Below, piece by piece: positions 9,854-60,300 of a stretch of 64,000 bases of DNA; the first letter of the stretch is position 1, and every line of letters begins with the position of its first letter. The notes below the pieces were generated by a model. That model saw nothing but the letters and a program-made list of their open reading frames with translations. It had not been told where the DNA came from and did no database searches. A program made the translations under genes and the position numbers. The DNA lies in NCBI GenBank assembly GCA_043228905.1, contig JBHGNT010000021.1:8866001-8930000 (forward strand). The letters run 5' to 3'. Origin of the DNA: Azolla caroliniana. Its lineage: Eukaryota; Plantae; Polypodiophyta.

Positions 9854-12800
9854 CACGGCGCCACTAATCTCGTCATCGGTGTTGAGAGCTCTACATGCTC
9901 TCAAGAACCTTTTGGCCTATTTCTTCTCCCGGCCGTTGATGCCGGTTATGGTACAACCTCCGTTGTCGAAGAACCAAAATTTCCTACCTATAGTACAGGT
10001 GTGGGGTTTGTTCTGGTCATTCTGACTATCGCGGCCCCACACCATGATAGCCCTTTTTAAAAATCCTCCCAGTCGTCATTGCCAAGAGTGTCCCTATTAC
10101 ACTCATGGTTTTGTCATACTGTCAGGAACTAAACGGAGTGACGGCCGTCCTGACTCTTCACCTTTGCATAGGCCGAACCATTGTCCAACACTTTGGTTTC
10201 CATTCGCGCCACTGTGATATATGGTTCGCAGAGGATGATCGGATGAAAGGACGCTCATGGTTCTATCATAGTGTCAGAAACTGAACGGAGTGACAGTCGT
10301 CCTGACTCTTCACCCTTGTATAGACCGAACCATTGTCCAACACTTTGGTTTCCATTCGCGTCGCTGTGATATATGGTTCACCGAGGATGACAAGATGGAG
10401 AGGATGTCTCTTGCAAGAAAAAGTGTGGTCTATCTCGACATCACCGACCCTTACTCAGACATTCGGGCAAGCCCCATGTAGCTCCTCCGTGGCTCGCGTA
10501 GTCACGCGTATCTTCCACCCGTGCTTGGTGTTGATTGGCCATTTCCCCTTCTTGTAGAAGTCCATGGACATTAGGTTAATTTCCAACCGACCCTTGTTCA
10601 ATCAATGCCACCACTGGCTCCCTCACATCCCCAATCCGAACCAGGATTTTTGTCGTTGCTCTGGCCCAGTGCGGCCTTGTGTAGTGGCATTCCGCAAGCT
10701 CGTTCTCTACGGCCACCTCATCAAGCAGCGCTGCCCTTACCTCGACCGGCTTCTCCGGTTCTGGCTCCGTCGCAAGCCACTTCCTTTTTACGAGATCCAT
10801 GATGTCATCGTGGAACTCTCTCCTTGCTATGCCTAGCACTTCTCTCAATGGGAGTTCTACGCAAGTATCGAGGATTCGCTCTTCTAGCACCTTTCATAGG
10901 TCCGTCATTTTCTCGATTTCCGAGTGTAACCGGAAGCTCGGAACCTTGCCCCTTTCTCTTTCTTGAGATCTAGCCGGAGTGACATCGTTCTTCTTTGGTC
11001 CGCTCCGAGTGTCATACCTCCCCGAAGGGCCTGCTCCTCCGGTCTTTCCGGCCTGCTTGTCGTCAACCAAAACCTCATAGTTCTGGCACGCGGCTTCTAC
11101 AAAGCCGGTTTTCTCCTCAACCAAGTCGCTCCATCCGATAACATCACGTACACGTCTTTCCGCACGGTCTGCTTCTCCCTTCTTCAGCTTCATTTCGGAG
11201 AAGGTCTCCAGTACCACCGGCCAAAATTCGGGGTTTGAATCAAGGCTAGTGGCCTTTCCACCCACGCGGATGCCGGCTGAGGCCGAGTAGTGGATAGCCT
11301 CGACGTGTCGCGCCACAGCCTCCTCCATCAACCTCTTCATGCCACCTCGTCCGGTGTTTACTTCGAGCATTTTGCACGTGCCACTCGCGTGCACCCTGCC
11401 ATTCAAAAGGTACACCACGTCGTTTCTAAGTGCTTCGCCGAAGTCGGCACAGTTTCCCCGAGCGTGACCGACGGCATCACACCATAAGCACCTTTGGTTG
11501 GTCGGCGGTTGGCCTCCATCGGCCCTTCAGGCCTGAGTGATCTAGAGATCGAGCACCATCTTCATCAACTCCTCTAGAGTCGTGCCCCCGGATGGTCCTA
11601 TGGCTACATTGGTCGGGGCCTGGCCCGACTCGAGCCACTTTCTCATTTCTTTTGTTCGGGTCGGCGCCAGCTCGGCCCTTGTCTCTAGCGTCAGACGGAC
11701 TGTTGAGGACCCCTCCTCTTTCCAGTCTCGTCATTTGTCGATCTGGCCACATACTCCTTTGACCACAACCCAGTCGACTATGAGCCCTTCGTTCATCTCC
11801 AAGAGGAGACCCACATTATCGCAATCGAGCAAGTCGAACGACTTAACAAACAACAGAACCTTGCTCGTGTCAAGAACGGTTCGGTTCAGTGTGGAGAGTC
11901 GCGCAAACTACGACTCAAACTCCTGAAGGAGCGCCGATGCGTTCCGACCTTTGCCAGGGCTATCAACCTAATCCATGAAATCTTTCTTTGACAGTCGGAG
12001 CGAGTCCTCAAAGTTGTACCGTTTGAGGATCCATCCCTTGAAGTCCGCCCAATTACAACAGTCTGCTTGTACCTCAAGCACTTCTGCATGGATGCTCGGC
12101 GTTACGACCCGAGGAAACCCGATCAACCGTCTACCTTCCGGAATATTCCTCATTTGTATCTCGGCCCAATAGGCCTCCAGGTAACTCGTGGCGTCTTTCC
12201 CATTAAACCGGCCTATCTTGTTGACCGTCGCTTCTATGGCTCTGTCAAGAGCACTCGTGCCCTCGCGAGCGCAAACCAAGCGGCCTACTGACACCACCAT
12301 TGCTTCGGCGAGTTTGCTTCCTCTCATCTTTGGTTTTCTTTGCCGCCCCTTTTCATGTCGGGTTCACCAAAGATGTCGCCGAATTCTGCGCAAATGCGTA
12401 GAAGTGGGGCAGGACCACAGGGGGTCTTGAACCAAGGAATCGAGCAAAAGAGGAGGAATATCCCTCGCATTGCGTATGCACAGACCGTAGACAGAATAGA
12501 GAGGGACAGGAGTGAGACGGTCGTAGGTCACCGTTACAGCGCGATATGACAGAATTGCAACACAAGACAACAGAATAGATTAACGGTATTAGTTAGAACG
12601 TGCGCGTGATGCACAGGGAGTACAACCGGTTTGAGCCGGGAGCAAAGCTTCGAGCTCCACAGTAGACACATGCAGAGTGATGATCCTTTGGTCAAGAGCA
12701 CGCGAACGTCTAACGCGAGCAGAGGATGCACCTTCCGGAGTTCGGTCGTTGGTCGTAATCAGAGAGAGAGAGAGAGCTTCGGTACTCTGATCGGCAGCAT

Positions 12801-29600: not shown

Positions 29601-30119
29601 ATAAATTCTCCTTATGTTCCAAACTTCAAATACTATGGAACAATCTATTCAAGAAAAAAATGGTTGTGACTAATAAAGATACACTGTTGGATTAAGTTGG
29701 TATTGTTGGCATGCCTCCTTTGTTTGACCATTGGTAGAGATGACAAAACATTTCGTCATCTCTTTGATGTTACAATAGAAGAAAAAAGAAGATGTACCCG
29801 TCATATGACAAGAAACTTAATTTTGATCACTTTCAAACTTTATCGCTTGTGAGATTTTTTTCCATTGATTTTAGAATGTCATGGAACAAGGCTCTAAGGA
29901 AACATTATCATATATTTTTATGATTTATTGTCTAAAGCACCTTTTCTCAATGGCGCAATATATTGAATTGATACCTAGAGTAGCAGGAGTATCATAGAAT
30001 ACAGTAGAAGCCTGAACGACTGTTGCACGAATAGTGCGAGTTGGTGGGAAACTCATCATGTCAATATCTGAAATTACAGGGACATCTGCCATGACTCCCA
30101 TCCTTAAGGATCCTTCCAT
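23687..30119 (-). CDS. NIT4: Nitrilase, NIT4-type (beta-cyano-L-alanine hydratase/nitrilase). Exons 30119-29975, 28141-27962, 26264-25971, 25277-24996, 23880-23687; 364 aa
   Basis: Catalytic triad motifs FPEAF, HRKLMPT and ICWENRMPL. Plant NIT4-like segments [18 protein letters not shown] and [14 protein letters not shown]. All introns are GT-AG in phase 1; total 1095 nt. Confidence 0.92.
25278..25925. repeat. Degenerate ~60-bp tandem array filling NIT4 intron 3
   Basis: Roughly 10-11 copies of a unit like CAGCTTGAAATACAAAGTTCTACACCTGACAAAGAATCCCACAAAAGTATTGG. Confidence 0.75.
28480..29520 (-). mobile_element. Possible degenerate LINE 3' fragment in NIT4 intron 1
   Basis: Only weak zf-RVT-like peptides; the composition differs from the surrounding intron. 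Confidence 0.25.
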
Positions 30120-30548
30120 ATTTAGTACACTGCAAAAAATAAGCATAAAATTGGTTTCAAAAAAGATAAATCCAAATATGTTGGATACAAATGTGAATTA
30201 ATACATAACGTGATATCAATCCATAAATGTATATACATTGATATTGTATGTAAACATCAATGATTGAATATGTACACATATAAATCAAAGATTGAATGCA
30301 TACATAAAAACTGTGTATGTGTGTGGATGCCCATGCCCGTGTTCCTTGCACGTATGTATGTGCATGTGAGGGGTGTGTGCGTAGCCGTAGTAATATAGGG
30401 TTTAACAAGAAATCATAGCAGAAGGCTCATATGTGTGCTGTTTTTTGAGAAAAGCCCTAATAATGCAGAGCTTAATAAGAGATCCCAACAAAAGAACGTG
30501 TGTGGTATGATGATACGAGTCTTATGAAGAAAGAGGCGAGAGGCTTAC

Positions 30549-40000: not shown

Positions 40001-40368
40001 CTCTAAATTTAGAGCTTCTACGAGGGAGATATGACGATTAGAAGATCGTTGTATCATAGCTAAGAATAGGAGATGGAAAAGCTGTAAAAAAAGCGTGGAA
40101 AAGAAAGCAAGCGAAACTTATCTACTAGAGGAGAACTTCATATAAAGCAAGAAGAGTGAGGTGGTGAGGGGGGCTTTTTTCTTGTGGGGTTTTTCTTGCC
40201 TATTCATGTAGTGCGTTTTTTCTAGTGATCAATTCATCCTTGTAGGCTTGAGTTTATGTATCTTCTTTCTCTTGTTTCTATGATCATCACTCCTTATTAA
40301 TATATCTTTGTAGATTTGGGTTTCTATATCTTCCTTCTCTCTCTTTTCTATCATCATCTCTCTTTTCA
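37062..40368 (+). mobile_element. Element F: 3307-bp non-autonomous LTR retrotransposon (TR-GAG-like, Gypsy/Athila-type) with apparently identical LTRs
   Basis: LTRs 37062-37700 and 39730-40368 (639 bp, TG...CA, no difference seen). TSD GTATG at 37057-37061 and 40369-40373. PBS TGGCGCTCCAGGGAGG at 37705. PPT before 39730. Confidence 0.95.
37798..39471 (+). CDS. 557-aa Gag-C-terminal / acidic linker / deleted protease-RT fusion protein of element F
   Basis: Uninterrupted ORF. It has a capsid-like segment (LRRELFQLRM...FKAGLDP...PRSFHDLL), RT N-terminal remnants (VSLIVVVPK, LNDSTKRDLFLLPFRDEILD) and a thumb remnant (VDEAKIDII...RFI). There is no YxDD, RNase H or integrase. Confidence 0.75.
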   Translation: MARYGVRDATDLRRELFQLRMVSPMCYLEYEKTFLDIWSTWIGLVGGVEDVYFKMERFKAGLDPYFQYEVHMKYPRSFHDLLRVCQSYDQQLKKLLFGEAYGLSASYTINPSYNNCGSVMSQQPAYLQCPIQQVPSYHYSNFWSYNDVYEGDFRDNEEEVMNVEFPHLVHEDNHDIKNDDVKDESKEIVMRSDVMDGDANVHHVEDIIDTTSDMVVDDEYVQDEMEDMTKEVVDGEVPTTKLQDEEGNLEVIAGDWLLEINACKEALVSAKLQCMKVFVHDLCFGFALSSNKVMWASTLQQQFDQEPRDLLVMHDWSIINLSPSKDPPQLIKCIKEKESSIDIGKQEEESITIDEYSWDRENKSFHMVSKEEEEVIEEKSIITLKGKKKMISNDVQGGEDLRFISLFFKFTKLFINEYSQIRVEGIKHHIKLENLKFVSLIVVVPKEKDVNFQSLNDSTKRDLFLLPFRDEILDEMVIHKKQGNVENVVCQEESHVDEAKIDIIQNMTILTSLEALKVFVQKVRSLERFIHMLTCLLLSRVMYHIDLLLFGKLMKIY

Positions 40369-43300: not shown

Positions 43301-45364
43301 AAACAACTACGTATCTTGGTCCTACAAGATGCACCAGTACCTTCTCGGGCACGATTACTGGAGCTATGTTGACGGAGCAAACGACACAACACCTGAATCG
43401 ACACACAGAGATTTCCCGGTGTGGGAACAATCGGCGAGCAGAGTATTGTACTGCTTCGCGTCTTGTGTGGGCGAACAACTCCTAAGCTACATTCGGGATG
43501 CAAAGACGCCGAAAGATGCTTGGGGAAATCTGAAGAAGATTTTTGCTACAAGCACTACAACCAGGAAGCTTCAACTCCGATAGGAGCTGAGCAACCTACA
43601 ACAACGCGACTTGTCGGTGGCAGACTACACCTCCAAAATCAAGGACATTTGCGACTCTCTGGCCTCCATCGATGTGAATATCGAAGAAGCCGATATGGTG
43701 CAAATCTGTCTCGGAGGTTTGGCGTCAAAGTTCGGAGCGTTCCAAATTGCTGTGTGTACAAGGGAGAATACGCCGTCATTTTTTGACTTACAATCGATGC
43801 TCCTTGTAGAGGAGAACCACGCCGGTGCGTCAAAAAGTGCACCCACCGACAACCGGATGCTGTACACAGAGGCGGATCGGCCCTGTGGGTGTGGTGGACG
43901 AGGCAGGTAGGCTCGCAATGGTAACGGTCGGCAAGAGCATGACCGAAGGCATAGAGAACGTGCCGACAACAGTTCCAGACCCTCCACAAGCAGGGGGAGT
44001 CAAGGCCCGCAAGAAAGGCCGACACGGAATGCTAGGGCCACAGAGAAAGCGTGTGCTGATTCGGACAGATCCGGATCCAGCAAGGCCGGCAAAGAGAACC
44101 GACAATACTCGCACTATGCAGAAGGATCGGGAGGATCCAAAACTGAAAAAACCAGTAAAGGGCCAACCTTGGTGATGAAACACGAGGCTAACTCAATGAA
44201 GAAGCTCACTTCCAAATCTAAGGAAGTGTGGTACGTTGATTCTAGTGTGTCGAATCACATGAAGAGGCACAAAGAGTAGCTCTCCTTCTTGGAGAAACCA
44301 GAACAACAAGGAGTCGTCGAAACCAGAGACGACACTCCTCACCCAATCGTGCATATTAGAGAAGTCCCTCTGAGCCACGTCAGACAGAAGGGGAAGCTGA
44401 TGAACATATTACACGTTCTGACTATCATGAAGAACCTGGTGTCAGTCGGTCAGATCGTTGACCAGGGGATGCAGGTGCGGTTTACGCACCTTGGGTGCTT
44501 CATCGAAGAAGAGGGCCAGATTATTGTGCAAGGGCGCAAAGAAGGGAGGATGTTCATCCTCGACACCAATGACGTCGACACCGCTTTGTTCGCCAAAGGA
44601 CAGAAGATTGAATCGGATATTGATCTCTGGCACAAGCGGATCGGCCACGTCAATTATTGGAGGCTTCAAGACCTGCAAACGAAACAAGTTGTTTTCGGTT
44701 TGCCGAAGTTCAGTGGCCGGAAGGCCCAAATATGTGAAGCCTGCCAACTTGGGAAGCAACACCGGCTTCCATTCCCCACGGAACGAAACCGTAGCCGTAA
44801 CAAGCTCGACCTTATTCATTCGGATGTATGGGGACCGGCACAGAATGTTAGTTTTGACGGGAGTCGATATTTCGTCTCCTTCATCGACGACTACTGTTGA
44901 GATCTTGACGCTTTCAAAACCTTCTTCTTCCTCGGCCACAACCGAGGAACCACGAATCAATGCAGCAGAAAATCGGAAAACACTGAGAGAGACTCGAATA
45001 CACAGGGTTTAACGTGGAAAACCCTAGACGGGAAAAACCACGGGAGTGCAAGACTCCAACGATCACTATATGCAGGGAATGTACAATGGCGAGCTGCAAG
45101 GCGACGACCTTGAGCTCGCTGTCCTCGCCACAGGCGGCGGTATTACACAGAGGCGTCGACCTCTTCCTTTCTCACTCTCTCGGTTGTTCTCACTTCGCTC
45201 CCTCTAAGTGAAAAACAGAAAATGAGCAACAACAACAAAACTGTTTGCCCTAAGTCATATTTATACACATATGACTTTTCGGGCTATTTACAAATACAGC
45301 CTCAAGGGCCCTTGGCAAACATATTCACTAATATGTCCCCGCATCCGGATCTCTCTCCGGGTAC

Positions 45365-45575
45365 ATTCGTCATCCGGCACCGTAGCCGGGGTCATCATCA
45401 TCCAGCTCCGTAGCCGGGGTCTTCATCATCCGGCTCTGAAAACGGTTCTTCATCATCCGGCTCCGGAACCCGGTCTTCATCATCCGTATCCGTAGCCGGG
45501 GTCTTCATCATCCGGCTCCGAAAACGGGTCTTCATCGTCCGGCTCCGGAAACCGGGTCTTCATCATCCGATTCCC
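45365..45575. repeat. ~27-bp tandem repeat array in the U3 of the Copia C LTR (also at ~50203-50413)
   Basis: About 8 copies of GGTCTTCATCATCCGGCTCCG with variable spacers. Confidence 0.9.
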
Positions 45576-45627
45576 GGACATCCGACCATCCCATCCGGAG
45601 GGACCGTAATCCCAACAAACTCCCCCT

Positions 45628-48600
45628 TCACTTCGGCATGGGATGTCTTTCCAGTCCGACCTTCTTCCGGCACGCTTCCAGCTTGTCGGGTGTGAGCACT
45701 TTGGTCAGCATGTCTGAACCGTTCTCGTCCGTGTGGATCTTCGTCAGCACGAACTCCTGGTCTTCTATCCTTTCCCGGATCCAGTGATATCTTCGCTGGA
45801 TGTGCTTCGTCCGGGAGTGATAGGCCGCGTTCTTCGCAAGATGGATGGCACTCTGACTGTCGCAGTAGAGTCGGTACTCCTCCTGCCGGATACCGAGCTC
45901 TCTAATGAAGTCCTTCATCCATATCATTTCCTTGCCGGCTTCAACAGCCACCATGTACTCCGCCTCCGTGGTTGACAATGCAACCGTCTTCTGCAGCCTC
46001 GACTGCCACGAAACAGCTCCCCCTGCATACGTCATCACATACCCTGATGTGGACCGGCTGGTATCTGCATCAGCTGACATATCCGAATCGGTAAAGCTGT
46101 CGAGTTCGGGCTTACCGGAGCCGAATCGGAGGCACACGTTTGCCGTGCCCTTCAGGTATCGGAGTATCCACTTGACCGCGTTCCAGTGCTCTTTGCCGGG
46201 ATTGCTCATGTACCGGCTCACCACTCCGACTGCATATCCTATGTCCGGTCTTGTACACACCATTGCGTACATCAAGCTTCCGACGACAGAGGCATATGGT
46301 ACTTTCATCATGTCCTCCTTCTCAGCCTTTGTCTTGGGGCTTTGCTTGCTGGACAACTTGCAGTTTGCCGGGAGGGTTGACCCGACCGGTCTTGCTTCCG
46401 ACATGTTGAACCGGTGAAGTACCTTTGTCACGTACTTCTCCTGTGACAGCCACAACTGCTTCTTCTTCCGGTCCCGGATGATGTGCATCCCTAGTATTTG
46501 CCTCGCCGGACCCAGGTCCTTCATTGAGAAGGTTCGGTGAAGCGCTTTCTTCAGCATCCGTATCTTGACCTGGTCCCGTCCGACGATCAACATGTCGTCC
46601 ACGTACAGGAGGAGTATTAGAAAGTCTCCTACTTCGAACTTCTTCACAAACACGCAGTGATCGGACTGCGTTTTGTGGTACCCTTCTTCGGTCATGAAAG
46701 AGTCGAACTTCCGGTACCATTGCTGGGGAGCCTGCTTCAGTCCGTAAAGGCTCTTCTTCAACCGGCATACCAGGTGCTCCTTCCCTTTCTTCTCGAATCC
46801 TTCCGGTTGCTGCATGTAGATCTCTTCTTTGAGGTCACCGTGAAGGAATGCCGTCTTCATGTCCATCTGTTCTACCTCGAGGTTCATGCTTGCCGCTATG
46901 CTCAGCACCGTCCGGATGGAGGTCATCTTCACTACCGGGGCAAATATCTCGTCGAAGTCGACGCCCTTCTTCTGCTGGAACCCCTTCACCACGATCCTGG
47001 CTTTGTATCTCGGGGGGCTTCCGGCATCTCCCGGTTTCAGCTTGAACACCCACCTGTTTCGAAGTGCCCGCTTTCCTTTCGGCAACTCCACAAGTTCATA
47101 TGTGTGGTTCTCATGCAGGGAATCCATCTCCTCCTGCATGGCACTTAACCACCTGCGGCTATGGGTGTCAAGCTTTGCTTCTTCAAAACTCTCCGGCTCC
47201 CCCTCGTCGGTTAGCAGCACGTGCTCTGGTTCCGGAAATCTCCGGGGGGCCCTTCTCTCTCTTAGAGGATATCTCCGTTCCGGAGCTTCGGTAACCGGCT
47301 CCTCCGTTTCCTCTTCATCCGAATCCATTTCGGGATCGGGGCCGGTTCCGGTATCAGTTTCATCTTCCTCGGCCGGTTCTGTTTCTTCACCGTCTTCGGC
47401 CCGATCCTCGAGTGCTAACCGGTCCCTTGCCGGTCGGGACTGCTCCTCGTAGAGTTGATCCTCACCGGTCGACTTGGAGCTCTTCATCTTCTTCTCCGAC
47501 TCCCAGTCGGCGAGTGTCTTGTCCTCCATGAAGATGATATCACGACTCTGGAATATCTTTTTGTCGACCGGGTCCCATACTCGGTAGCCGAACTCGTCAT
47601 CGCCGTAACCGAGGAATATGCATGGCCGGGTCTTTGGATCTAGCTTTCCTCTCCGGTCCTTTGCCACATGCACATATGCGAGACACCCGAACACCTTCAG
47701 ATGCCGGTAGGATACTTCCCTACCGGTCCACACTCTCTGCGGCGTGTCTCCGTCCAAAGGTACTGAGGGTGATCTGTTTATCACGTATGTCGCCGTCGAC
47801 ATTGCCTCAACCCAAAACCCCTTGGGTAATTTCGCATGCGCCAGCATACTCCGGACCCTCTCCATTATGGTCCGGTTCATCCTCTCGGCCAGCCCGTTCA
47901 GTTCCGGCGTCTTCGGCACAGTAAACTCGAGCCGGATTCCCTTCGAGCGACAGTACTCCTCGAATTGCCCCCGGTATTCCCCTCCGTTATCCGCTCGTAT
48001 CGCTTTCAGCTTCTTGCCGGATTCCCTTTCCACTCTCGCGTGGAGTTCTTTGAAGACGCACAACACTTGGCTCTTTGTCTTCAACGGTGCCGTCCACAGC
48101 TTCCGGCTGTGGTTATCAATGAATGTCACGAAGTACTGGGCTCCGCCATGTGACTTCGTTTCTACTTGACACACGTCAGTGTGCACCAACTCCAATGGTG
48201 CGCTACGTCTCGTCGGTGGCCTTGAGTGGAAGGAGGTTCGGTTCTGCTTATCGGCCAGGCAATCGGTGCACTTCTCCAGGTGCACATGCTTCACTGGAAT
48301 AAGGTTGTCTTCTGCAAGCCTCTTCATCCCCTTCTCACTCATGTGGCACAGTCTCTTGTGCCACAACTCACCGGCAGTGTCGGCTGCCACGTTCAACTCT
48401 TCCGGACACAACCAGGCATTCATAAGGTACAGTGTGTTGACTTTCCGGGCCCGAGCCACTATCAGGCTCCCCTTGCTGAACTTCATTACGCCGTTCCGGA
48501 TGCTACCTGTGTAGCCTTCATCGTCTAGCCTCCCGGCCGAAATCAGGTTCAATCGAACCTCCGGAACGTGTCGGACATCCTTCAGCAACATTTTGCATCC

Positions 48601-49701
48601 GGTCGAGGTTGTCAACCACACGTCTCCTATGCCGGCAATCCGGCACGTACCTTCATTTCCCATCCGAACACAGCCATGCTCACCGGCTGTGTAGGATGAG
48701 AAGTATCTTCTTTCCGGGGTCAGGTGGAACGACGCTCCGGAATCGACCACCCAGGTAGTCTCATCGCCGGCAATGTTTAGTTCACCTTCTTCGGTGATGA
48801 GCATGATCTCCTCTTCACTTGCCGCGAGTGCCGTCGTTCCTTTCCGGTCCTGCCCTCGCCGATCCGAACCATTCCGGTCCGTGGCTCCCCGGTAAGCACC
48901 GTTCTGTTCCGAAGACTTCTTCGAATCGGTGTCGTCGGCTCCGTTGTCTTTTCGGTAATGCCGACAATTCTTTCGGAAGTGCCCCGGCTTCCCACAGTGG
49001 AAGCATGTGGGCCTTCCTCTTGACTGCGACCGGGTCCCCGACTTCTCCCGTCTTTGCGGACTCCGGTTCCGTTGTCTTCCCCGATCCGATTCGGTAAGCA
49101 ACATCTTTGGATCGGAGGCCGGTTCTTTATCTCTCCGACGCGCTTCTTCGTTCAAAATGCTTGTCTTTACCGTTTGTAAGGACAAGTTATCTTCGGTGCA
49201 GGAGGTGCTGAGAGTCACCACCAAGTTCTCCCAGCTCTCCGGCAATGTACACATCAGGATGATGGCTTGCATTGCATCCTCCAACGGGAACTTGATCCCC
49301 GCAAGCTGGTTCACGAATCCCATGAACGTGCTTACGTGTTCCACCATACTCTCGCCGTCCCGGTACTTGAGATTCACTATCTTCCTCATCAGGGAGGTCC
49401 GGTTCAACGCATTCTTCCTCTCGTAGAGGCCCGACAGCTTCCGCCACATCTCATATGCGTTGGTGTCGTTCGCCACATGTTGTAGAACGCTCACGTCGAC
49501 GTATTGCCGAATGGTTGCAACGGCTTTCCGGTTCAGAAGCCTCCATTCCGTCTCAAGTACCCCCTTGGGTATTTCCGACCTGTCGATCGGTTCATACAGG
49601 TCCCGAACAATGAGCAAATCCTCCATCTTTATCTTCCAGTCGGCGTAGTTCTGCGCATTCAGCACCATCATCCCCGGCTGCCCGCTGCTGCCGCCTTCCA
49701 T
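45628..49701 (-). CDS. Copia C Gag-Pol polyprotein, 1357 aa (Gag, Zn knuckle, protease, integrase, RT, RNase H)
   Basis: Single ORF from the first ATG after the PBS. Motifs CFHCGKPGHFRKNC, WVVDSGASFH, HTDVC, RADNGGEY, LYVDDML, FTDSD and KHIQRRYHW. Confidence 0.95.
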   Translation of the reverse strand: MEGGSSGQPGMMVLNAQNYADWKIKMEDLLIVRDLYEPIDRSEIPKGVLETEWRLLNRKAVATIRQYVDVSVLQHVANDTNAYEMWRKLSGLYERKNALNRTSLMRKIVNLKYRDGESMVEHVSTFMGFVNQLAGIKFPLEDAMQAIILMCTLPESWENLVVTLSTSCTEDNLSLQTVKTSILNEEARRRDKEPASDPKMLLTESDRGRQRNRSPQRREKSGTRSQSRGRPTCFHCGKPGHFRKNCRHYRKDNGADDTDSKKSSEQNGAYRGATDRNGSDRRGQDRKGTTALAASEEEIMLITEEGELNIAGDETTWVVDSGASFHLTPERRYFSSYTAGEHGCVRMGNEGTCRIAGIGDVWLTTSTGCKMLLKDVRHVPEVRLNLISAGRLDDEGYTGSIRNGVMKFSKGSLIVARARKVNTLYLMNAWLCPEELNVAADTAGELWHKRLCHMSEKGMKRLAEDNLIPVKHVHLEKCTDCLADKQNRTSFHSRPPTRRSAPLELVHTDVCQVETKSHGGAQYFVTFIDNHSRKLWTAPLKTKSQVLCVFKELHARVERESGKKLKAIRADNGGEYRGQFEEYCRSKGIRLEFTVPKTPELNGLAERMNRTIMERVRSMLAHAKLPKGFWVEAMSTATYVINRSPSVPLDGDTPQRVWTGREVSYRHLKVFGCLAYVHVAKDRRGKLDPKTRPCIFLGYGDDEFGYRVWDPVDKKIFQSRDIIFMEDKTLADWESEKKMKSSKSTGEDQLYEEQSRPARDRLALEDRAEDGEETEPAEEDETDTGTGPDPEMDSDEEETEEPVTEAPERRYPLRERRAPRRFPEPEHVLLTDEGEPESFEEAKLDTHSRRWLSAMQEEMDSLHENHTYELVELPKGKRALRNRWVFKLKPGDAGSPPRYKARIVVKGFQQKKGVDFDEIFAPVVKMTSIRTVLSIAASMNLEVEQMDMKTAFLHGDLKEEIYMQQPEGFEKKGKEHLVCRLKKSLYGLKQAPQQWYRKFDSFMTEEGYHKTQSDHCVFVKKFEVGDFLILLLYVDDMLIVGRDQVKIRMLKKALHRTFSMKDLGPARQILGMHIIRDRKKKQLWLSQEKYVTKVLHRFNMSEARPVGSTLPANCKLSSKQSPKTKAEKEDMMKVPYASVVGSLMYAMVCTRPDIGYAVGVVSRYMSNPGKEHWNAVKWILRYLKGTANVCLRFGSGKPELDSFTDSDMSADADTSRSTSGYVMTYAGGAVSWQSRLQKTVALSTTEAEYMVAVEAGKEMIWMKDFIRELGIRQEEYRLYCDSQSAIHLAKNAAYHSRTKHIQRRYHWIRERIEDQEFVLTKIHTDENGSDMLTKVLTPDKLEACRKKVGLERHPMPK

Positions 49702-51654
49702 TTTCTGCACTACAGTCGCTCTGATACCAGATTGTTGAGATCTTGACGCTTTCAAAACCTTCTTCTTCCTCGGCCACAACCGAGGAACCACGAATCAATG
49801 CAGCAGAAAATCGGAAAACACTGAGAGAGACTCGAATACACAGGGTTTAACGTGGAAAACCCTAGACGGGAAAAACCACGGGAGTGCAAGACTCCAACGA
49901 TCACTATATGCAGGGAATGTACAATGGCGAGCTGCAAGGCGACGACCTTGAGCTCGCTGTCCTCGCCACAGGCGGCGGTATTACACAGAGGCGTCGACCT
50001 CTTCCTTTCTCACTCTCTCGGTTGTTCTCACTTCGCTCCCTCTAAGTGAAAAACAGAAAATGAGCAACAACAACAAAACTGTTTGCCCTAAGTCATATTT
50101 ATACACATATGACTTTTCGGGCTATTTACAAATACAGCCTCAAGGGCCCTTGGCAAACATATTCACTAATATGTCCCCGCATCCGGATCTCTCTCCGGGT
50201 ACATTCGTCATCCGGCACCGTAGCCGGGGTCATCATCATCCAGCTCCGTAGCCGGGGTCTTCATCATCCGGCTCCGAAAACGGTTCTTCATCATCCGGCT
50301 CCGGAACCCGGTCTTCATCATCCGTATCCGTAGCCGGGGTCTTCATCATCCGGCTCCGAAAACGGGTCTTCATCGTCCAGCTCCGGAAACTGGGTCTTCA
50401 TCATCCGATTCCCGGACATCCGACCATCCCATCCGGAGGGACCGTAATCCCAACAACTACAACCGACACACATGGATCTACCTCATTGAGCGGAAGAGCG
50501 AAGTCTTCGAGTGTTTCCGGAACCTGCAAAGCCTGGTTGAATGGGAAATGGAGAGGAAGATCAAGTGCCTGCGGTCGGATGGTGGAAAAGAATATTTTTC
50601 CGGTCAATTCAACAGTTATCTGCAGCAAAAAGGAATTCGGAGAGAGTTCAACTGTAGATACACACCGGAGCAAAACGGTGTGGCCGAAAGGAAGAACTGG
50701 TCAATTGTTGATGTAGCAAGGGCAATGCTGGAGGAGAAGAGCATGCCCCATTTCTACTGGGCGGAGGCGGTCCAGACGACGGTCTACATCCAAAACCGGA
50801 TCGGTGACAAGGTGTCCTCGCATGAGCTATATTTCGGGCGCAAGCCGAATTTGAGACACCTTCGGATATTCAGTAGCATTGCATATGTGCATGTGCCGGA
50901 TGAGAAGCGGAGGAAGTTGGATGCAAAGTCGGAAAAATGCATCCTGGTCGGTTACTCGCATGAGCAAAAGGGGTATAAGTGTTATAACCCCTGGACGAAG
51001 CAGGTTTGCGTTAGCCGGGATGTTGATTTTGATGAGACGGTGTCGTGAAGAAAACCGTCCACAAGCGGAATCGGTGCACCGGAGCGTAGGAACCGGCTCT
51101 TCATACACGTGCGCCTTATGTAGTACATAGAAGATCCTCGGTAGGTAGGAAGTTAATAGGAAACGGCTCCTTCCTTGCCTATAAAAGGAGGGAGACAAGG
51201 AAGAGAGAGGGAGCGCGGAGAGTCGAGGACGAAGTGCTGTCGGTTTGTGTGCGAAGGCTTCTCTCTCTCTCTGGTTCGCAAACTCCATAGCTTCCTTCTG
51301 TGCAGGTTTCGGGAGGCTCGCGCTGCTCTGAGGAATGCCCGAGTGCTTCCGGCAGCACCTCCAACCTCCTCCTTCCTTTCTGTGCGTTTGTGAACAGGTA
51401 TCGGCATCTGTTCGCCGGCCTGTTCGGTTGTAACCGACTTCGTGTTTTGGTTGTCTGTCTTTGTTAATACATACATACATCCGTGTCTCTCTGTGTCGCT
51501 GTCCCACTCGCGTCTTTGTGTCGAAGGGCTGTGTCCTTGTGAATCTACTCTCGCACGTAGTGGGTCTCTTCTCCTTTCTCTCTTGCTCTTCGGTACAGGA
51601 CCCCCGAGGTCCCGCCTCATTCCACACATCCGCGAGGAATACCCTTGACATCTT

Positions 51655-51672
51655 TGGTGAACCCGACGTGAA
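51655..51672 (+). other. Primer binding site complementary to the tRNA-Trp 3' end
   Basis: TGGTGAACCCGACGTGAA is the reverse complement of TTCACGTCGGGTTCACCA, the plant cytosolic tRNA-Trp 3' end as I recall it. It lies 4 nt after the LTR. The same arrangement is seen in G2. Confidence 0.85.
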
Positions 51673-51694: not shown

Positions 51695-53820
51695 ATGAAA
51701 GGGTCGGATCTTGCAGAGGCCATGGTTTTGGCCGTGGATCGGATATTGAGCGCACGCGAGGGCTCCGGCGCCCTCGACAAAGCCATTGAGGCGGTCGTCG
51801 GTACGATCGGCCGGTTCAGCGGAAAGGATGCCACGAAGTATTTGGCATCCTACGGGGCAGAAATGCTGATGCGGGACATTCCGGAAGAGAGGCGTCTTGC
51901 CGGGTTTCCTCGAGTGGCGATGCCGAGCATCCATGCGGAGGTGCTCGAGGTGCGGGCGGAGAGCCGTACCTGGGAGGAGTTCGAAGGCCGACTCCTGGAA
52001 AAATACGGGCTGGACGACGCGCTCCGGCTTTCGAAACGAGACTTAATGGAATGGGTGGAGTCCCCCGGCAAGGGAAGAAACGCGTCGGCACTCCTTCGGG
52101 AGTTCGAAGAACGCTTTGCGCGCCTTTCGGCGCTTGACCGAACCGTTCTGGATACGAGCCGGGTCCTATTGTTCGTCAAGTCGGTGGATGAGCGGGACCG
52201 GGATCAAGTCGGCTCCTTGCTGGAAACCGAAGACGGGCTGACGACCGACTGGGCTGCGGTTAAGAGGGTCTGTGGCCGTTTCGACAAACGACAAGAATGG
52301 GCTGATAACGGGGCGGCCTGTGCGGGGTCTGTCACAGCAAGGAGGCTTGAACCGGCACCGCAAGGGCGAAGGGAAGAAACCCGGGAATGGCTCGAAACCG
52401 GTCCGGCTGCGACCGGCATGGTCAGTGGCTCGTCCGGAGGAGCAACGCTGGAGGAGTTGACGCAGGCGATAAAGGATCTCCAGATCGCCCAGACTCGAAG
52501 GGAAGGCGGCGAACCGGCTCGTGACCGACGGCCGGCAGCAGGGAACAGGTGCATGTGGTGCGACGAGGTCGGCCACATCCGGAAGGACTGCAGCGATTTC
52601 GCAGAAGCGTTGAGGAACCGGGTGGTGTACCTGTGGGAAGGCCGGGTGCACGCTGGCGACACCAGAAGGGCCCTAAACCGAAACGACGGACGAGGAGGTA
52701 TGAAGAGGCTGATGGAAGAAGTAGCGGCCCGACACGTGGAGGCCATCCACTACTCGGCGTCGGCCGGCATTCGGGTCGGGGGCAGCGAGGCCCGAAAGGA
52801 GGGCAAAGACGGATTCTGGTCGGCAATGTTGGAAGGTCTTGCCGGCGCACAGCTAAGGAAAGACGAAACGGACCGCGCTGAGAGACGGGTCCGGGAAATA
52901 ACCGGGTGGAGCGATCCGGTCGAGGAGAAGACGGGCTTCGTAGAAGCCGCCTGCCGGAACTACGAGGCTTTGGTAGAAGACAAGCGAGTGGGGAAAACCG
53001 GAGCGGCCGGGCCCTCACAACGGTACGAGACCCGATTCGGGCAACGATGGAACGATGCCGGTGGGTCCGGCTCGCAAGATAACCCCAGGAAGGGCGGATA
53101 CCGACTAGGGACGGAAATAGAAACGACTACGGACCTACGAAAGGTCCTAGAAGAATGGATCCTCGACAGCAAAGTGGAGTTTCATTGCGGGAGGTGCTAG
53201 GGATCGCCAAGAAGGAGTTCCATGACTCCATTGTGGACCTGGTGAAACGGAAGAGGCTGTCGACGGAGACGGAACCGGAAAGACCGGTGGAGGTGCGGAC
53301 GACGCACATCGACGACATGGCGATGGAAGACGAGTGGGCGGAGAGCCACTATTCGAGGCCACACTGGGCCCGAGCGACCACGGAGACCCCGGTAAAGATC
53401 GGAGATGTTCAGGAACCGGTGGTGGCGTTGGTGGACCACGGTTCGGAAATAAACCTAATGTCCATGGACTTCTATAAGAAGGGAAAGTGGCCGATCAACA
53501 CCAGGCACGGGTGGAAGATACGGGCGGCGACGCGCGCCACCGAGGAACTGCATGGGGCCTGCCCGAATGTGCGAGTAAAGATCGGCGACGTTGAGATTGA
53601 CCAACACTTCTTCGTACAGGAGACGTCCTCGCACCCGGTCATATTAGGGGAACCATACATCACGGCGGCGCGAATGGAGACCACGGTGTTGGACAACGGT
53701 TTGGCCTACGCGAGGGTCAAAAGCCAGGACGGGCGCCTTTCGGTTCAATTTCTGACGGTGCGGCCGAACCACGAGCGAAACCGCGAATCCCTCGGTGGCG
53801 AGAACCGGGAGGATTTTTAG
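51695..53820 (+). pseudogene. G3 Gag-protease ORF, broken by a 1-nt deletion near 53180
   Basis: Zn knuckle CMWCDEVGHIRKDC and protease LVDHGSEIN. The same junction is in frame in G2 (ILDTCVELPLREVLG). Confidence 0.8.
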
Positions 53821-56800
53821 AGAGGGCTGCCAAGGCGTGGGGCCAAGACAGCCCGGACACTCGGGAAAGACCCCACGACTGTACGATAGAACCGAAACCG
53901 AAGGAAACCTGTACGATAGGTAGGAAATTTTGCTTCTCCAACAACGGAGGGTGTATGATAGTCGGCATCGTCGGCCGAGAAAAGACAAGGGCGGAAGTGC
54001 GACTTCGAGCGTGCGGAGTTCTCGGCTCGGACGAGGAAATCAGCGGAGCCGTGGAGGCGGTCTCCTTCGACGACACCTTGGGGATGCTGAGGAAGGTTGC
54101 CGGAGAAGACCTTAACGAAGACCGGACGATACCGGTATGTTCCGAAGAGATGTACGGAGTCATCGCGGACTTCAGTCAAGGGCTCGGGTCGGATCAGACG
54201 GCCCGAGTTAGCACGAGGTACAAGACTGTGGACCGGAAGGTAAGGCCAGTCGCGGCACCCTTGCCGGAGGGCAGCGAGTCCCGAATCAGAGGGGTGGCGA
54301 CCCCAGTTTACGAGATCCGGCCTGCATAGGACACACCTTCACCGACGGGACACTCCGGGAGCTCAAGATCGGTGGGGGCGGGGAGATCCGGCCTGCATAG
54401 GACACACCTTCACCGACGGGACGCTCCGGGAGCTCAAGATCGGTGGGGGCGGGTTCCTACTACAGACGGAGGAAGACCGGTTTCGGAGAATGCTCGGAAG
54501 GCACGGGAAAGCCTTCGCATTCTCGCCGGAAGAGATCGGGTGCGTAGACCCGACAATCGTGGAGCCGATGGTGATATTCACGGTACCGCATGTGCCGTGG
54601 AGTCTCAAGCCGATTCCGGTACCAAGAGCTCACATCCCGAAGTTGATGGAGCTACTGAGGCAGAAAGTCGATATGGGCATTCTCGAACCGTCGAGTGCGC
54701 CATACTCGAACCGATGGTTTACCGTACCAAAGAAGAACGGAACATTGCGCTTCATTCAGGACCTACAGCCGGTCAACAGAGTGACCATTCGGAACGCAGG
54801 AATCGGACCGACCATAGACGAGTTCGCGGAGGCCTTCGCCGGAAGGTCGATTTACTCGGTCGGTGATCTGTACTTGGGGTACGACCAGTTCCAGCTAGCC
54901 GTGGAGAGCAGAGACATTAGGACGATGCGAACTCCCCTCGGCCTAGTGCGAATGTGTACCCTGCCACAAGGAGGGACCAACTCGGTAGCCCACATGGTGA
55001 ATGCAATGAACAAGGTACTGAGGGATTGCATCCCGGACATCACCATGCCGTTTCTAGACGACATCCCGATCAAGGGGTGCCCGGTGGAGGAGAAGGACGA
55101 GACTGTCGGGCCGGACGGATGCCGGCGATTCGTGGCAGCACACATCGACGACTGCGAGAAGGTGCTACAAAGGCTAGAGGATGCGAGGCTCACCTTCTCC
55201 GGGGAGAAATCGGCCTTCGGGCAATCGGAAATCCTGGTGGTCGGACACCTATGTGGACCATATGGCCGGAAGCCGTCTCCGGCAAAGGTAGGAGCCATCT
55301 CCGCGATGAAGACCGACTGTAGCTCGGTTATAGAAGTCCGGAGGTTCCTGGGGGCATGCGCGTTCTACCACATATGGATCCCGCATTACGCCCACGTTGC
55401 AGAGCCGCTATACGGGTTGCTGAAGAAGGGACGAAAATTCGAGTGGCGAGACGAGCACACGGAGTCGGTCCGGAAGCTGAAGGAAGCTCTTGCGGCAGCA
55501 CCAGCGCTCCGGAAGGCTGTCTACGAAAAGGGTACCCCGGTATACATAATGGTGGATACGAGCCCGACCGGGATCGGATGGGTCGTCAACCAAGAAGACA
55601 AGGACGGCATTCGGTTCCCGATCCAATTCGGCGCGAAGGTCCTCAGTGAACGACAGCGAGGGTACGCCCAGGTTAAACGCGAACTCTGGGGAATCGTTTC
55701 GGCAGTAAAGGCCGACAAGGACTACCTGATCGGGACGGAAGTGATTGTCGAGACGGATTGCCTGCCAATTCTCGGCATGGTTTCCGGATGCGCGACACCG
55801 GACCTGGCGATGCTCAGGTGGATAGCGTACATCAAGTCCCTAGACCCGGAAATACGACACATTTCTGGAAAGGACAACGCCATGGCCGACATGCTTTCGA
55901 GGGCGAGGTTTGATGACGAGGGCGGCATGGTTTCGGAGGACGAAGAAGTCGGCGTGGACTTCTTCGAGGCAGCGTACGTGACGACCGATGGGACGAGCAC
56001 TCCGGCACTTAACGACTTCGACGAGAGCAAGTACGACGGCGAGTGGCTCCAGATCGGTGGTTTTTTGAGGACGATGACGCTGGATGCGTCGTGGACGAAG
56101 GACGAGGCCAACCGGATCCGGAAGAAAGCTTACCGATTCTTTCTCCGAGACGGATACTTATGGAAGCACCCGAAGAAGAGGAACGGCGTCCCGCTCCGGG
56201 TGGTGGCGATGAAGGAAGAACAGGAGGAGCTGCTGACGGCTTACCACGACAACCCTTGGGCTGGTCACCGTGGAACGTGGGCCACGTTCGAGAAGATAAA
56301 GGGGAAGTACTGGTGGCTGGGACTGTACCGGGATGTGCATCGGTTCGTGACAACTTGCGAGATCTGCCAGATGCACTCCATAGTTCGGCATCGGGATGAG
56401 CTTCACCCTACGTACCCACCGACCGTCCACTTCAAATGGATGGTAGATCTGGTGACGATGCCGATGGGAGTAGGACAGATGCGGTACCTGGTCCTGGCTC
56501 GGGAAGATCTGACGAACCAGGTGGAAGGCCGAGCCCTTCAGAACAAAACGACTGCAGCCGTATGTCGGTTCCTGATCGAGGACATGATATGCCGGTACGG
56601 GTGCGTCGGGAAGATCGTGGCCGATCGCGGGGAGCTGGACGCCGAAGAGGCCGAGGAGCTGTTCGACCGGCTAGGAGTCAAGCTCTCGCTCACCACTGCA
56701 TACAATCCGGAGGCGAATGGAAAGGTGGAGCGCGGACACGGACCGATCGTGAAGGCGTTAGTTCGGGCATGCGGGGGTCAAGTCGGGAACTGGCCGCGGC

Positions 56801-57381
56801 TGCTGCCTTACGCGTTGTGGGCTGACCGAACTACGCACAGTTCGGTAACCGGATTCATGCCGGCAGAGCTCATGTTTGGGCAGAAGCCGATCATGCCGAT
56901 GGAACGTACGATCTCCTCCTGGGCAACCGTGGACTGGAAAGACGAGATGAGTCGGGAGGAACTGTTGACGGCACGCATACGGCAGCTCGAGCGAAGACCG
57001 GAGGACGTGGAGCAGGCTGCGGAAAAGCTTCGGGTGGCAAGGACGAGGAACAAAGCCCGGTTCGACCGGACGCACCGGCTCCGACCGAAGAAGATCGAGG
57101 AAGGCGACTGGGTGCTAGTCTACGACAGCAGCCTCGACAACCAGCACCGAGCGACAGGGAAGTTCGCAAGAAGGTGGTTCGGGCCTTACGTGGTACAAAG
57201 CGCCAACGACAACGGGACGTACCATCTGGCGGAACTCGACGGTACGAGAATGGCGATACCGGTAGCTGGGAAGCGGATCAAAGCGTTCAAGAAGCGTCAC
57301 CACGACGAGCCGGATCCGGTTGACCTGGACCGGGACGACGAACGATCCGAAACCGAAGAAGAACCGACGGGCGGGGAATAA
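53811..57381 (+). pseudogene. G3 pol (RT, RNase H, integrase); open from 54490, disrupted upstream by a frameshift near 54300 and a 71-bp duplication (54312-54453)
   Basis: Motifs DLYLGYDQ, LPQGGTNS, FLDD, VDTS, HHCC region, VDLV/DRGE/E and GPY; no chromodomain. Confidence 0.88.
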
Positions 57382-60300
57382 AGGCTGGGCTGGTTTTCTC
57401 CGTCTCAACTCAATTTGGCGCATGCCGGTGGATGCACGGTTAGGTGGGGGCGGATGTCGTGAAGAAAACCGTCCACAAGCGGAATCGGTGCACCAGAGCG
57501 TAGGAACCGGCTCTTCATACACGTGCGCCTTATGTAGTACATAGAAGATCCTCGGTAGGTAGGAAGTTAATAGGAAACGGCTCCTTCCTTGCCTATAAAA
57601 GGAGGGAGACAAGGAGGAGAGAGGGAGCGCGGAGAGTCGAGGACGAAGTGCTGTCGGTTTGTGTGCGAAGGCTTCTCTCTCTCTCTGGTTCGCAAACTCC
57701 ATAGCTTCCTTCTGTGCAGGTTTCGGGAGGCTCGCGCTGCTCTGAGGAATGCCCGAGTGCTTCCGGCAGCACCTCCAACCTCCTCCTTCCTTTCTGTGCG
57801 TTTGCGAACAGGTATCGGCATCTGTTTGCCGGCCTGTTCGGTTGTAACCGACTTCGTGTTTTGGTTGTCTGTCTTTGTTAATACATACATACATCCGTGT
57901 CTCTCTGTGTCGCTGTCCCACTTGCGTCTTTGTGTCGAAGGGCTGTGTCCCTGTGAATCTACTCTCGCACGTAGTGGGTCTCTTCTCCTTTCTCTCTTGC
58001 TCTTCGGTACGGTATCATGGTATGCCTTAGCGGCTTCGACTTCCGACCCCGACCCGATATCGGAGGATGAGGCTAGTGAGCCTGAACCAGTCCAGATAGA
58101 AGATGAAGACCTCGACACTCTAGAAGAGAGTCCGATCTCGTTTCGGTTAAGTGGACCGAATGAGCGGCTGAGTAGGGATGACCAGTCGGATGACGAACCG
58201 GCGAGTAGTGGAGACTCTGCCATGGTCTCCCCGTGCAACGAACCGAGGAGAAGGTTCACACGCAAAGAGAAGGGGAAGAAGAAGATGCCGGAATATGAAA
58301 TTGGCAACGTTGAGTCGGATCGAAGCGAATCCGACTTCGGAAAGGATGAAGGCGGATCTTTAGCAACAAAGACCGCACCGGCCAAGAAGGGCCTCAAACC
58401 GGGTAACGATAAGTTACGCCGGTCTTCTCGTCAGAAGAACCCCGTAAAGCGGTACGGGTACAATGAGTACATGGTGCATTACTATGCGTACATGACCAAG
58501 GTGGCGGAAGTGCGTGAGCCGGAGAGCTACGCAGAAGCGGCAAATGACACAAATTGGCGTGCCGCTATGGAGGAAGAAATGCGGGCACTTGATGCCAACG
58601 ACACATGGGACCTAGTTGACCCTACCCAACACTGTAAACCGATCGGATGTAAGTGGGTGTACAAGGTAAAGTACAATGCTGACGGTTCGGTTAACCAACA
58701 CAAGGCCCGATTAGTGGCGAAGGGATATGCGCAGACCCATGGAATCGACTACGATGAGACCTTCGCTCCAATAGCGAAGATGACGACGGTTCGTGTGGTG
58801 CTGACGGTTGCTGCGGCAAGGGGGTGGCATCTTCACCAGATGGACGTTATACCAGCATGGTATAACCGAAGAGATAGTCGGCTACACCGATGCCGACTGG
58901 GCCGACGATGCATTGGATCGCCAATCCATCTCCGACTATATGTTTTCCCTTGGTAGCGTGGTTGTTGTGTGGAGCAGCAAAAAGCAGCTAATAGTGGCCC
59001 TTTCGAGCACTGAGGCTGAATACCGGGGCACCACCGTTGCCACTTGTGAAGCCATTTGGCTTCGACAACTGTTGCAAGACCTGCAGATCGAGGTGCCGAC
59101 CCCGATCCTGATCTACTGCGACAACATAAGCAGCATGCAGCTGGCCAAGAACCCCATATTCCATGCTCGCACAAAGCACATAGAAGTGCACTACCACTTC
59201 GTGCGTGAGTGTGTCTTGAGTGGTGAAGTCGAACTTCGGTATGTTCATACGGATCGGCAAGTTACCGACATCTTCACCAAACTGCTCAGAATGGACAAGT
59301 TACAACACTTCACCGAAATGCTTGGTGTTCAGCATCTCGACGTTCCACACTTGAGGGGGAGAATGGGCAAAGAGGGCAAAGACACCGGAACGGGCAAAGG
59401 CAAAGAAACTATTGATTGCACCGGTGAGGGAAGAACCGACAAAGGGAGAGATAAGAAGAAGAAAGGAGCCGAGTCGACAAAGGAAGTCGACACATCCGAA
59501 CAAGTCGGAACAAGCGGCAACGACGGTAGAGTTAAGAAGGACAGAGCCGACCGGAAGAAGAAGGCCAAGACCCGGACATGGTTTGATGTGGTGAAGGGCC
59601 TGGAACCGGAAGACGAATCGGGATTAACCGATTCAGACAAGAGTTGGAACGAATCGGAGACAGCAGATTCAGAAGAACCGGATCAATTCAAGGCCAAGAG
59701 GACGAGAAGGCAGCGAAAGTCGATGCCAACATGAAGGAATCGGCGAATCGGCTAGCGCCAAAGTCACAGTAGTGATGAAGCCGAATTGGGCATGTTGAGC
59801 AGACAAGCCGACCGAGGAGGTCGAGGTGCGCAGGAACATAAGGGTCGCGGCAAACGGGACCGAACCGGACGAGGAGCGTGAGCGAGGCGGAGTGACGCCA
59901 GAAGGAGCCAGGTGGAAGGACCAGCTGCCATGGAGATTGACACTACGATCCGACCTCAAGTTGAGCTTCAGGGGGAGTGTTGAGTGGCAAGCTCAACCGG
60001 ATCCGGATCGGTTGAATAAGCCCGAGCCGGATCGGCATCCGGAAGGATGAGCCGGATCAGTGAGACGGTGAGCAAGTGAGCCGATGAGCTGGGGAGTCGG
60101 TTAGCCGGATCAAGCAGTAACCGGAAGCCAAGTAGCAGCTAGACTACTAGGTAGTTAAGGTCTTGTAGTTAGTGTTAGATGCTCGTGTGAGCATTGAAGT
60201 ACACCGTACTTCTGTTAGTTCGTATGGACTTGTATAAAAGTGTTCACTGAACACATACGATGTATAGAGTATTACAGAGTTTTAGAGTTATTTTGAATAT

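Follow-up and report, generated by a model that had tools for sequence, protein, structure and literature searches.

The window analyzed here, a stretch of 64,000 nucleotides (nt) of Azolla caroliniana DNA (contig JBHGNT010000021.1, positions 8,866,001 to 8,930,000 of the forward strand), carries two related retrotransposons, G3 on the plus strand and G2 on the minus strand, in which the Gag-protease reading frame ends at a slippery heptamer. We examined this junction in both elements, in further copies from the same genome and in metagenome relatives, and the comparison of these sequences indicates that it is very probably a site of programmed ribosomal frameshifting from Gag-protease to Pol that is used throughout the lineage.

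[quoted passage not shown] The 5' LTR (51041..51650, plus strand; TGTC...GACA) is directly preceded by ACGG, an NCGN-type target site, and is 98.9% identical over 556 nt to the 3' LTR (57455..58010, plus strand), which is shorter at its 3' end. The primer binding site (51655..51670, plus strand), which is presumably of the tRNA-Trp type, as assigned in the original prediction, an earlier reading of this DNA, has a motif that also follows the 5' LTR in full-length copies. The whole element is nested in a copia-type element, with integrase ahead (50224-51048) and RT behind (58010-58956).

The Gag part of G3 open reading frame (ORF) 1, with a CCHC knuckle (51695..53200, plus strand), is cut off from the protease part (53083..53820, plus strand) by a copy-private break near 53.18 kb; unbroken relatives have Gag and protease in one ORF of about 680-830 codons. 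The protease part ends in D-F-stop and has a catalytic-type Asp codon (53434-53436) in the motif ALVDHGSE. Its Pfam match, Asp_protease_2 (E 0.0097), is under the cut-off and is a weaker call than those for RT, RNase H and integrase, and the top PDB match of a 15-sequence protease profile was the Ty3 Gag-Pol protease region (E 9e-4). The usual aspartic protease motif is D-T/S-G, and that of the G3 lineage reads D-H/S/G-G-S-E (53425-53448 and the alignment of relatives). Between Gag and protease, eight of nine whole or partial ORF1 proteins (L066, L094, L106, L110, L113, L116, L139 and L187) matched Pfam DUF4100, which suggests that DUF4100 is a part of these retrotransposons. The Pol frame starts in -1 with a region of about 140 codons ahead of a YKTVDRKVRP motif (53817..54329, plus strand). 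This stretch between the shift site and RT (53817-54240; L061:1141-1680) matches no Pfam family, its protein-atlas neighbours are unnamed, and its second half is protein-constrained. RT, RNase H and integrase follow (54244..57381, plus strand; Pfam RVT_1, RT_RNaseH, Integrase_H2C2 and rve) in an ORF split from the -1 frame by a private break near 54.30 kb and continuous with it in unbroken relatives. The breaks near 53.18 kb and 54.30 kb are absent from 28 of 29 and 29 of 29 close copies, respectively.

At the junction, the heptamer G_GAT_TTT (53811..53817, plus strand, ORF1 frame) is followed by a 6-nt spacer (53818..53823, counted from the heptamer, stop included) that opens with the ORF1 stop TAG (53818-53820). 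Pseudoknot stem 1 (53824..53854, plus strand) pairs GGGCTG (53824-53829) with CAGCCC (53849-53854) and encloses the 5' arm of a predicted stem 2 (53836..53877, plus strand; CGTGGGG, 53836-53842, with CCCCACG, 53871-53877) that was absent from the original prediction. The G2 cassette (9998..10066, minus strand) consists of the heptamer GGATTTT (10066-10060), TAA (10059-10057), stem 1 (GGCTATC/GATAGTC, 10052-10046 with 10030-10024) and stem 2 (10043-10035 with 10006-9998), with an A-T pair in stem 1 where G3 has G-C, and G3's primer binding motif recurs at 12354..12369 (minus strand). Re-reading the coordinates returned the heptamers, stops, stem 1 arms and G3 spacer exactly as the original prediction had described them. 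The -1 frame of G2 ends after 48 codons and no RT match was found downstream in its locus; because neither G3 nor G2 is intact, the case rests on family copies.

The junction in the Azolla genome and across the lineage

To align the family, we collected 60 loci from the same genome by BLAST over 500 nt (30 of the 40 best matches to G3 and 30 of the 41 to G2, the two queries among them). Of these 60, 57 had the heptamer intact, and the next codon was TAG in 47, TAA in 8, TTG in 2, AAA in 1 and gapped in 2, so that 55 loci have an adjoining TAG or TAA; the length across the site was unchanged modulo 3 in 56. Genome-wide, GGATTTT followed by 6 nt and the stem start gave 3,708 matches against 5 for the control pattern, while a 5-nt spacer gave 20 (control 2) and a 7-nt spacer 9 (control 40); these matches count copies rather than independent events.

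A protein search returned 266 relatives, and most of the 120 listed were Pol proteins starting past the protease; no relative was found in a viral contig collection. From a metagenome scan we took the best 80 of 166 candidate loci, 22 of which had no PR in the fetched DNA. Among the 58 loci with both PR and RT (RT identity 57-96%), none had the two in frame, 56 had Pol at -1, including 3 whose junction has decayed, and 2 had it at +1/-2. Over the 130 codons after the site, the Pol frame was the sole open frame in 23 of 23 non-redundant junctions. With the 3 decayed loci excluded and an in-frame NNT-TTY required near the stop, the first three letters being free, the 55 usable junctions had the heptamers GGATTTT (46), GGATTTC (4), GGTTTTT (2), GGGTTTT (1), AAATTTT (1) and GAATTTT (1), and GGATTTY occurred in frame elsewhere in ORF1 at 3 of 12,523 codons. 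The ORF1 stop was TAA in 23 junctions, TAG in 22 and TGA in 10; it adjoined the heptamer in 48, lay one codon later in 3 and five codons later in 4. The adjoining stop that had been reported for G3 and G2 is thus common and neither universal nor required. The junctions show an in-frame heptamer at the ORF overlap, a predicted and covarying 3' structure and an open -1 ORF without a start of its own, as canonical -1 signals do. Down to 57% RT identity the lineage keeps the -1 offset, a heptamer of the X_XXY_YYZ type and a spacer of 5-7 nt, which supports the programmed -1 shift between Gag-PR and RT put forward in the original prediction.

The coding constraint around the site was assessed from the proportions of nonsynonymous and synonymous differences (pN and pS) in 22 nearest-neighbour pairs drawn from 30 loci. 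Where the protease ends, the pN/pS ratio was 0.25; over the first 22 codons past the site it was 0.93, with equal change at all three codon positions and a drop of pS from 0.73 to 0.36. Toward RT the ratio then took the values 0.75, 0.57, 0.36, 0.33 and 0.25, and protein constraint on the Pol N-terminal region climbed from codon 60 on. The ratio of 0.93 and the equal change at the three codon positions indicate that the first 22 codons are conserved as RNA, not as protein. The -1 frame had been described as open and conserved as protein immediately after the site. Both quoted peptides are present in that frame; the conservation of the quoted peptide, however, would be due to RNA structure, and the G2 frame closes as described above.

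The stimulator, reported earlier as a stem, is predicted by our scan to be an H-type two-stem pseudoknot, of which the reported stem exists as stem 1, and both stems covary. The hairpin by itself did not stand out in stability (z from -1.1 to -1.9 in all 6 plain minimum free energy folds), because such folding cannot form a pseudoknot. The stem 1 loop pairs with a segment about 9-23 nt past stem 1, and in the common form stem 1 has up to 11 pairs, the loop 2-3 nt and stem 2 6-7 pairs, with 0-1 nt between the stems. In a fixed-geometry scan, a pseudoknot of -25 kcal/mol or lower starting 5-7 nt past the heptamer was detected in 24 of 30 non-redundant junctions, compared with 12 of 3,000 positions taken from the same elements as controls. 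The stem 2 arms change in step (GCGGGG/CCCCGC, ACAGGG/CCCTGT, GCGAGA/TCTCGC, GCAGGA/TCCTGC, GGTGAGT/ACTCACC). In a plain MAFFT alignment, not fitted to the structure, 74 cells showed double-sided change against 31.6 after shuffling (reached in 0 of 500 shuffles), and the covariation score was likewise above all 500; the number of pairs with double-sided change was reached in 22 of 500. Such changes were seen at 9 of the 11 pairs in stem 1 and at all 6 in stem 2, true partners paired at 75% compared with 38-42% for slid partners, and own arms outpaired swapped arms in both stems (0 of 20,000 permutations). Rfam had no match at the site.

Taken together, the pseudoknot would halt the ribosome while GAU occupies the P site and UUU the A site, and after a -1 slip the tRNAs would re-pair on GGA and UUU. 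A minority of ribosomes would slip back one base and make Gag-protease-Pol, most would stop after the protease, and the outcome would be an excess of Gag-protease over RT and integrase. That the shift sets a ratio of Gag-PR to Pol, as the original prediction proposed, is our inference as well.

Several observations weigh against this interpretation. One distant relative, P0097 (57% identical, 8.8-kb contig), has CCHC, protease and RT in one ORF; it may belong to a family in which the shift was lost, or be a copy altered by mutation. Gene models of the named relatives in Riccia (53-68% identity) fuse the parts in 13 long cases, as do 2 from Tilletia, all of these being predicted gene models. 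In the Azolla genome, copy L007 has the protease and the downstream peptide in one frame via a private indel and stops soon after. Three of the 30 junctions fall short of -20 kcal/mol (L050, L055 and L087), L056 qualifies only by a different fold, and the G3 family has a stem 1 of only 6 contiguous pairs with a weaker upper part and an unremarkable plain fold. The 3' arm of stem 2 is out of register in some alignment rows, and because the structure was drawn from these same, related sequences, the shuffle counts are not probabilities and kinship inflates the tests.

Removal of an intron across the junction in some transcripts, fusing protease to RT, is the arrangement of Ogre, which shares the GAG-PROT / RT-RH-INT split and uses partial splicing according to the part of PMC6317226 concerned, where its ORFs are on average 274 bp apart; in the lineage studied here the two ORFs overlap, and Pol can be read without a stop from the heptamer onward. 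The joined Riccia models and a CAG-GT at the site in the +1/-2 family would fit splicing, but the Riccia joints measure 80-196 residues between two anchors against 181-221 codons in the DNA, as expected of predicted introns. No common donor or acceptor was found: of the 8 GT columns in common, 7 fall at the first position of a codon and encode valine, and all have at most 1.9 of 4 further matches to the familiar donor consensus. Two contigs of one RNA library span the site ungapped and no RNA joint was listed, a weak argument resting on contigs 81-87% alike. Splicing, which would also leave the heptamer and pseudoknot unexplained, is very unlikely. Separate translation of Pol, whether ribosomes reinitiate past the ORF1 stop or use a shorter transcript, would agree with the many predicted Pol proteins that start near the site (for example with MWG) and with the G2 ATG six codons in. 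Across 54 loci, however, the first in-frame ATG lies 2-110 codons past the site at no common position, and constraint is up by codons 60-100 (pN/pS 0.57), ahead of the first ATG in many families, which makes this route highly improbable.

Slippage of RNA polymerase or RT on the T run, giving some in-frame transcripts, could draw on the four or five T in a row at the site. The four GGATTTC junctions have three T only, the fixed spacer to the pseudoknot suits ribosome geometry, and copies with one extra base were not enriched (9 matches, control 40); we regard this origin as extremely unlikely. It is hardly credible, finally, that these elements inherited the offset as an inactivating mutation and move with Pol from an in-frame master copy. 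The decay of G3 and G2 and the single ORF of the relative P0097 would agree with this, but purifying selection acts on both ORFs (pN/pS 0.25 where the protease ends and again on nearing RT), and the offset is held across RT identities of 57-96%. Moreover, no amplified in-frame family was found among 90 junction loci of this genome or by the genome pattern search; intact copies in which a single frame covers PR and RT, named in the original prediction as evidence against itself, thus did not turn up as a family in the Azolla genome. Programmed frameshifting remains the reading that we strongly prefer for the lineage.

A sub-clade with Pol at +1/-2

The original prediction did not include a sister family in which the Pol frame lies at +1/-2. 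In L109 and L110, whose RTs are 88.5% identical to each other and about 70% to that of G3, the junction reads CAG GTT TTT, then five bases and the same pseudoknot, with one spacer base fewer than in the -1 families. Within five codons a stop ends the -1 frame; translation in the -2 frame gives F-L/F-T-R-T, which matches the Pol start of the -1 families. Genome-wide, the L109/L110-type pattern gave 98 matches against 0 for the control; GGTTTTT with 5 nt before the stem start gave 113 (control 4), and with 6 nt 19 (control 5). The +1/-2 offset was present in 30 of 30 loci of the Azolla genome picked by BLAST (from the 40 best matches, 98-100% identical). The changed heptamer A_GAT_TTT is common to two of these 30 loci, L158 and L167, which keep the short spacer.

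All 7 whole +1/-2 copies, which were picked for long ORFs, had two open ORFs of 737-739 and 1,164-1,181 codons. The LTRs were 99.9-100% identical in 5 of the 7, which indicates that the family moved recently. None of the contigs from three RNA or likely-RNA runs matched it, which says nothing about expression; the RNA data consisted of assembled contigs, and the RNA-labelled runs had shares of 0.07 or less. In a midpoint-rooted tree, in which P0014 and P0017 (97-98% identical to them) stood in for the two +1/-2 families, these formed one clade among the -1 families (SH-aLRT, Shimodaira-Hasegawa-like approximate likelihood ratio test, 99).

In this young sub-clade, with G_GUU_UUU preceded by A, the spacer one base shorter, -1 closed and Pol at +1/-2, ribosomes would likely shift by -2. 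[quoted passage not shown] Some points count against a -2 shift. In 8 of the -1 junctions, too, an additional base pair can form and puts the best stem 1 start 5 nt past the heptamer, so that spacer length by itself cannot account for the -2 family. Heptamer, spacer and frame became associated in one evolutionary event only. The -2 model also has the tRNA in the P site re-pair poorly (GUU to AGG), which would favour a +1 shift at the UUU codon. The frame offset alone is the same for +1 and -2, and UUU_UAC in L110 permits perfect +1 re-pairing. In the amplified family of the Azolla genome, however, the +1 codon would be UUG, which pairs less well than UUU with tRNA-Phe, and a -2 shift leaves UUU in the A site in both families. 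The retained 3' pseudoknot and the likeness of the octamer to the PRRSV site also speak against +1. Within this sub-clade we therefore regard +1 as possible though doubtful and -2 as the probable direction.

On balance, we lean toward the combined view that a seed-free-plant lineage uses a virus-type pseudoknot shift after the protease, and that one still-active family was retuned from -1 to -2 through GAU to GUU and the loss of one spacer base. If true, a -2 shift driven by RNA structure would occur naturally in a nuclear element and would put the mRNA-tension model of shift direction to an evolutionary test.

Other window features and comparison with known systems

The window holds further elements. 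A 3.3-kb element (37062-40368) has 639-nt LTRs that are 100% identical and a PBS-like (primer binding site-like) motif on the minus strand at 39693; its 612-codon ORF (37633-39471, plus strand) runs in the opposite direction to this motif and has no Pfam match. A Copia element (44895-50456) has LTRs 99.6% identical and one open ORF of 1,388 codons (45628-49794, minus strand). At 24889-30197 (minus strand) lies a multi-exon host gene, two exons of which match the carbon-nitrogen hydrolase family.

By descriptive traits, and compared by description only, the G3-type elements fit Phygy, a non-chromovirus Ty3/gypsy lineage of Neumann et al. 2019, for which the relevant part of PMC6317226 gives the ORF organisation as ND and Physcomitrella as sole named host. 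Shared traits are a 4-bp NCGN target duplication (CCGT, ACGG, GCGT, ACGG, ACGC, GCGG and CCGG in 7 of 14 fetched stretches, the ends of the other 7 being unresolved), an interior filled by the coding sequence with two ORFs and no extra ORFs, and the lack of a chromodomain or second RNase H family (Pfam, two Pol ORFs). One conserved primer binding motif follows the 5' LTR and is presumably of the Trp type, the type of Phygy. Phygy elements measure 7.66-9.97 kb in the same part of PMC6317226; the G3 family (6.8-7.1 kb) lies below this range and the +1/-2 family (7.9 kb) within it. In the portion of PMC6317226 concerned, no gypsy lineage is classed with GAG-PROT overlapping RT-RH-INT. The Tat lineages Ogre, with a spliced spacer, and Retand, with a single in-frame stop, differ in this respect (PMC6317226, in part) from the other-frame overlap here, and no Ogre-type non-coding gap with splice sites between the PROT and RT ORFs was found in the lineage, whose ORFs overlap.

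Alpharetroviruses carry the protease in Gag. The cassette resembles signals of the coronavirus infectious bronchitis virus type and of Rous sarcoma virus gag-pol in its heptamer, 5-9-nt spacer and 3' H-type pseudoknot, and the latter also in that the shift yields a Gag-Pol fusion (PMC5009743, in the part concerned); unlike these viral -1 signals, it sits in a nuclear plant retrotransposon. The same part of that review describes G_GA starts, a tolerated variant of the canonical heptamer, at -1 sites of some umbra- and dianthoviruses, with G_GAU_UUU in pea enation mosaic virus. These sites share the heptamer, a stop close behind and plant ribosomes with the cassette; they use a stem-loop that pairs with a loop kilobases away, in contrast to the compact local pseudoknot here. 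The sub-clade is like the arterivirus nsp2TF site (PMC4937337, in the part concerned) in its AG_GUU_UUU, with -1 closed soon and -2 open. PRRSV relies on a protein complex on a C-rich motif without RNA structure, as the same part of that paper has it, unlike the sub-clade with its pseudoknot 5 nt downstream; the protein-bound arterivirus motif CCCANCUCC was not seen in the sub-clade rows examined, where the pseudoknot occupies the post-site sequence.

The corresponding part of PMC5009743 lists -2 use for phage Mu, arteriviruses and a Trichomonas virus, and states that a 2003 survey had come across no plant element whose pol lies in the -1 frame. Searches of the open literature turned up no account of this cassette; an annotation might exist in sources outside the search, namely papers behind subscription, the survey of 2003 itself, supplements to preprints and databases of repeats. 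If thousands of copies carry a pseudoknot -1 signal, this would explain the inconsistent joints in gene models of these elements, and the lineage offers about 30 natural pseudoknots, divergent from one another, for plant ribosomes to read. Because -1 and likely -2 cassettes a few bases apart occur in one genome, what sets shift direction is directly testable. The mechanism class is well known from viruses; apparently new are its placement after the protease in plant LTR elements, the covarying pseudoknot and the likely -2 derivative.

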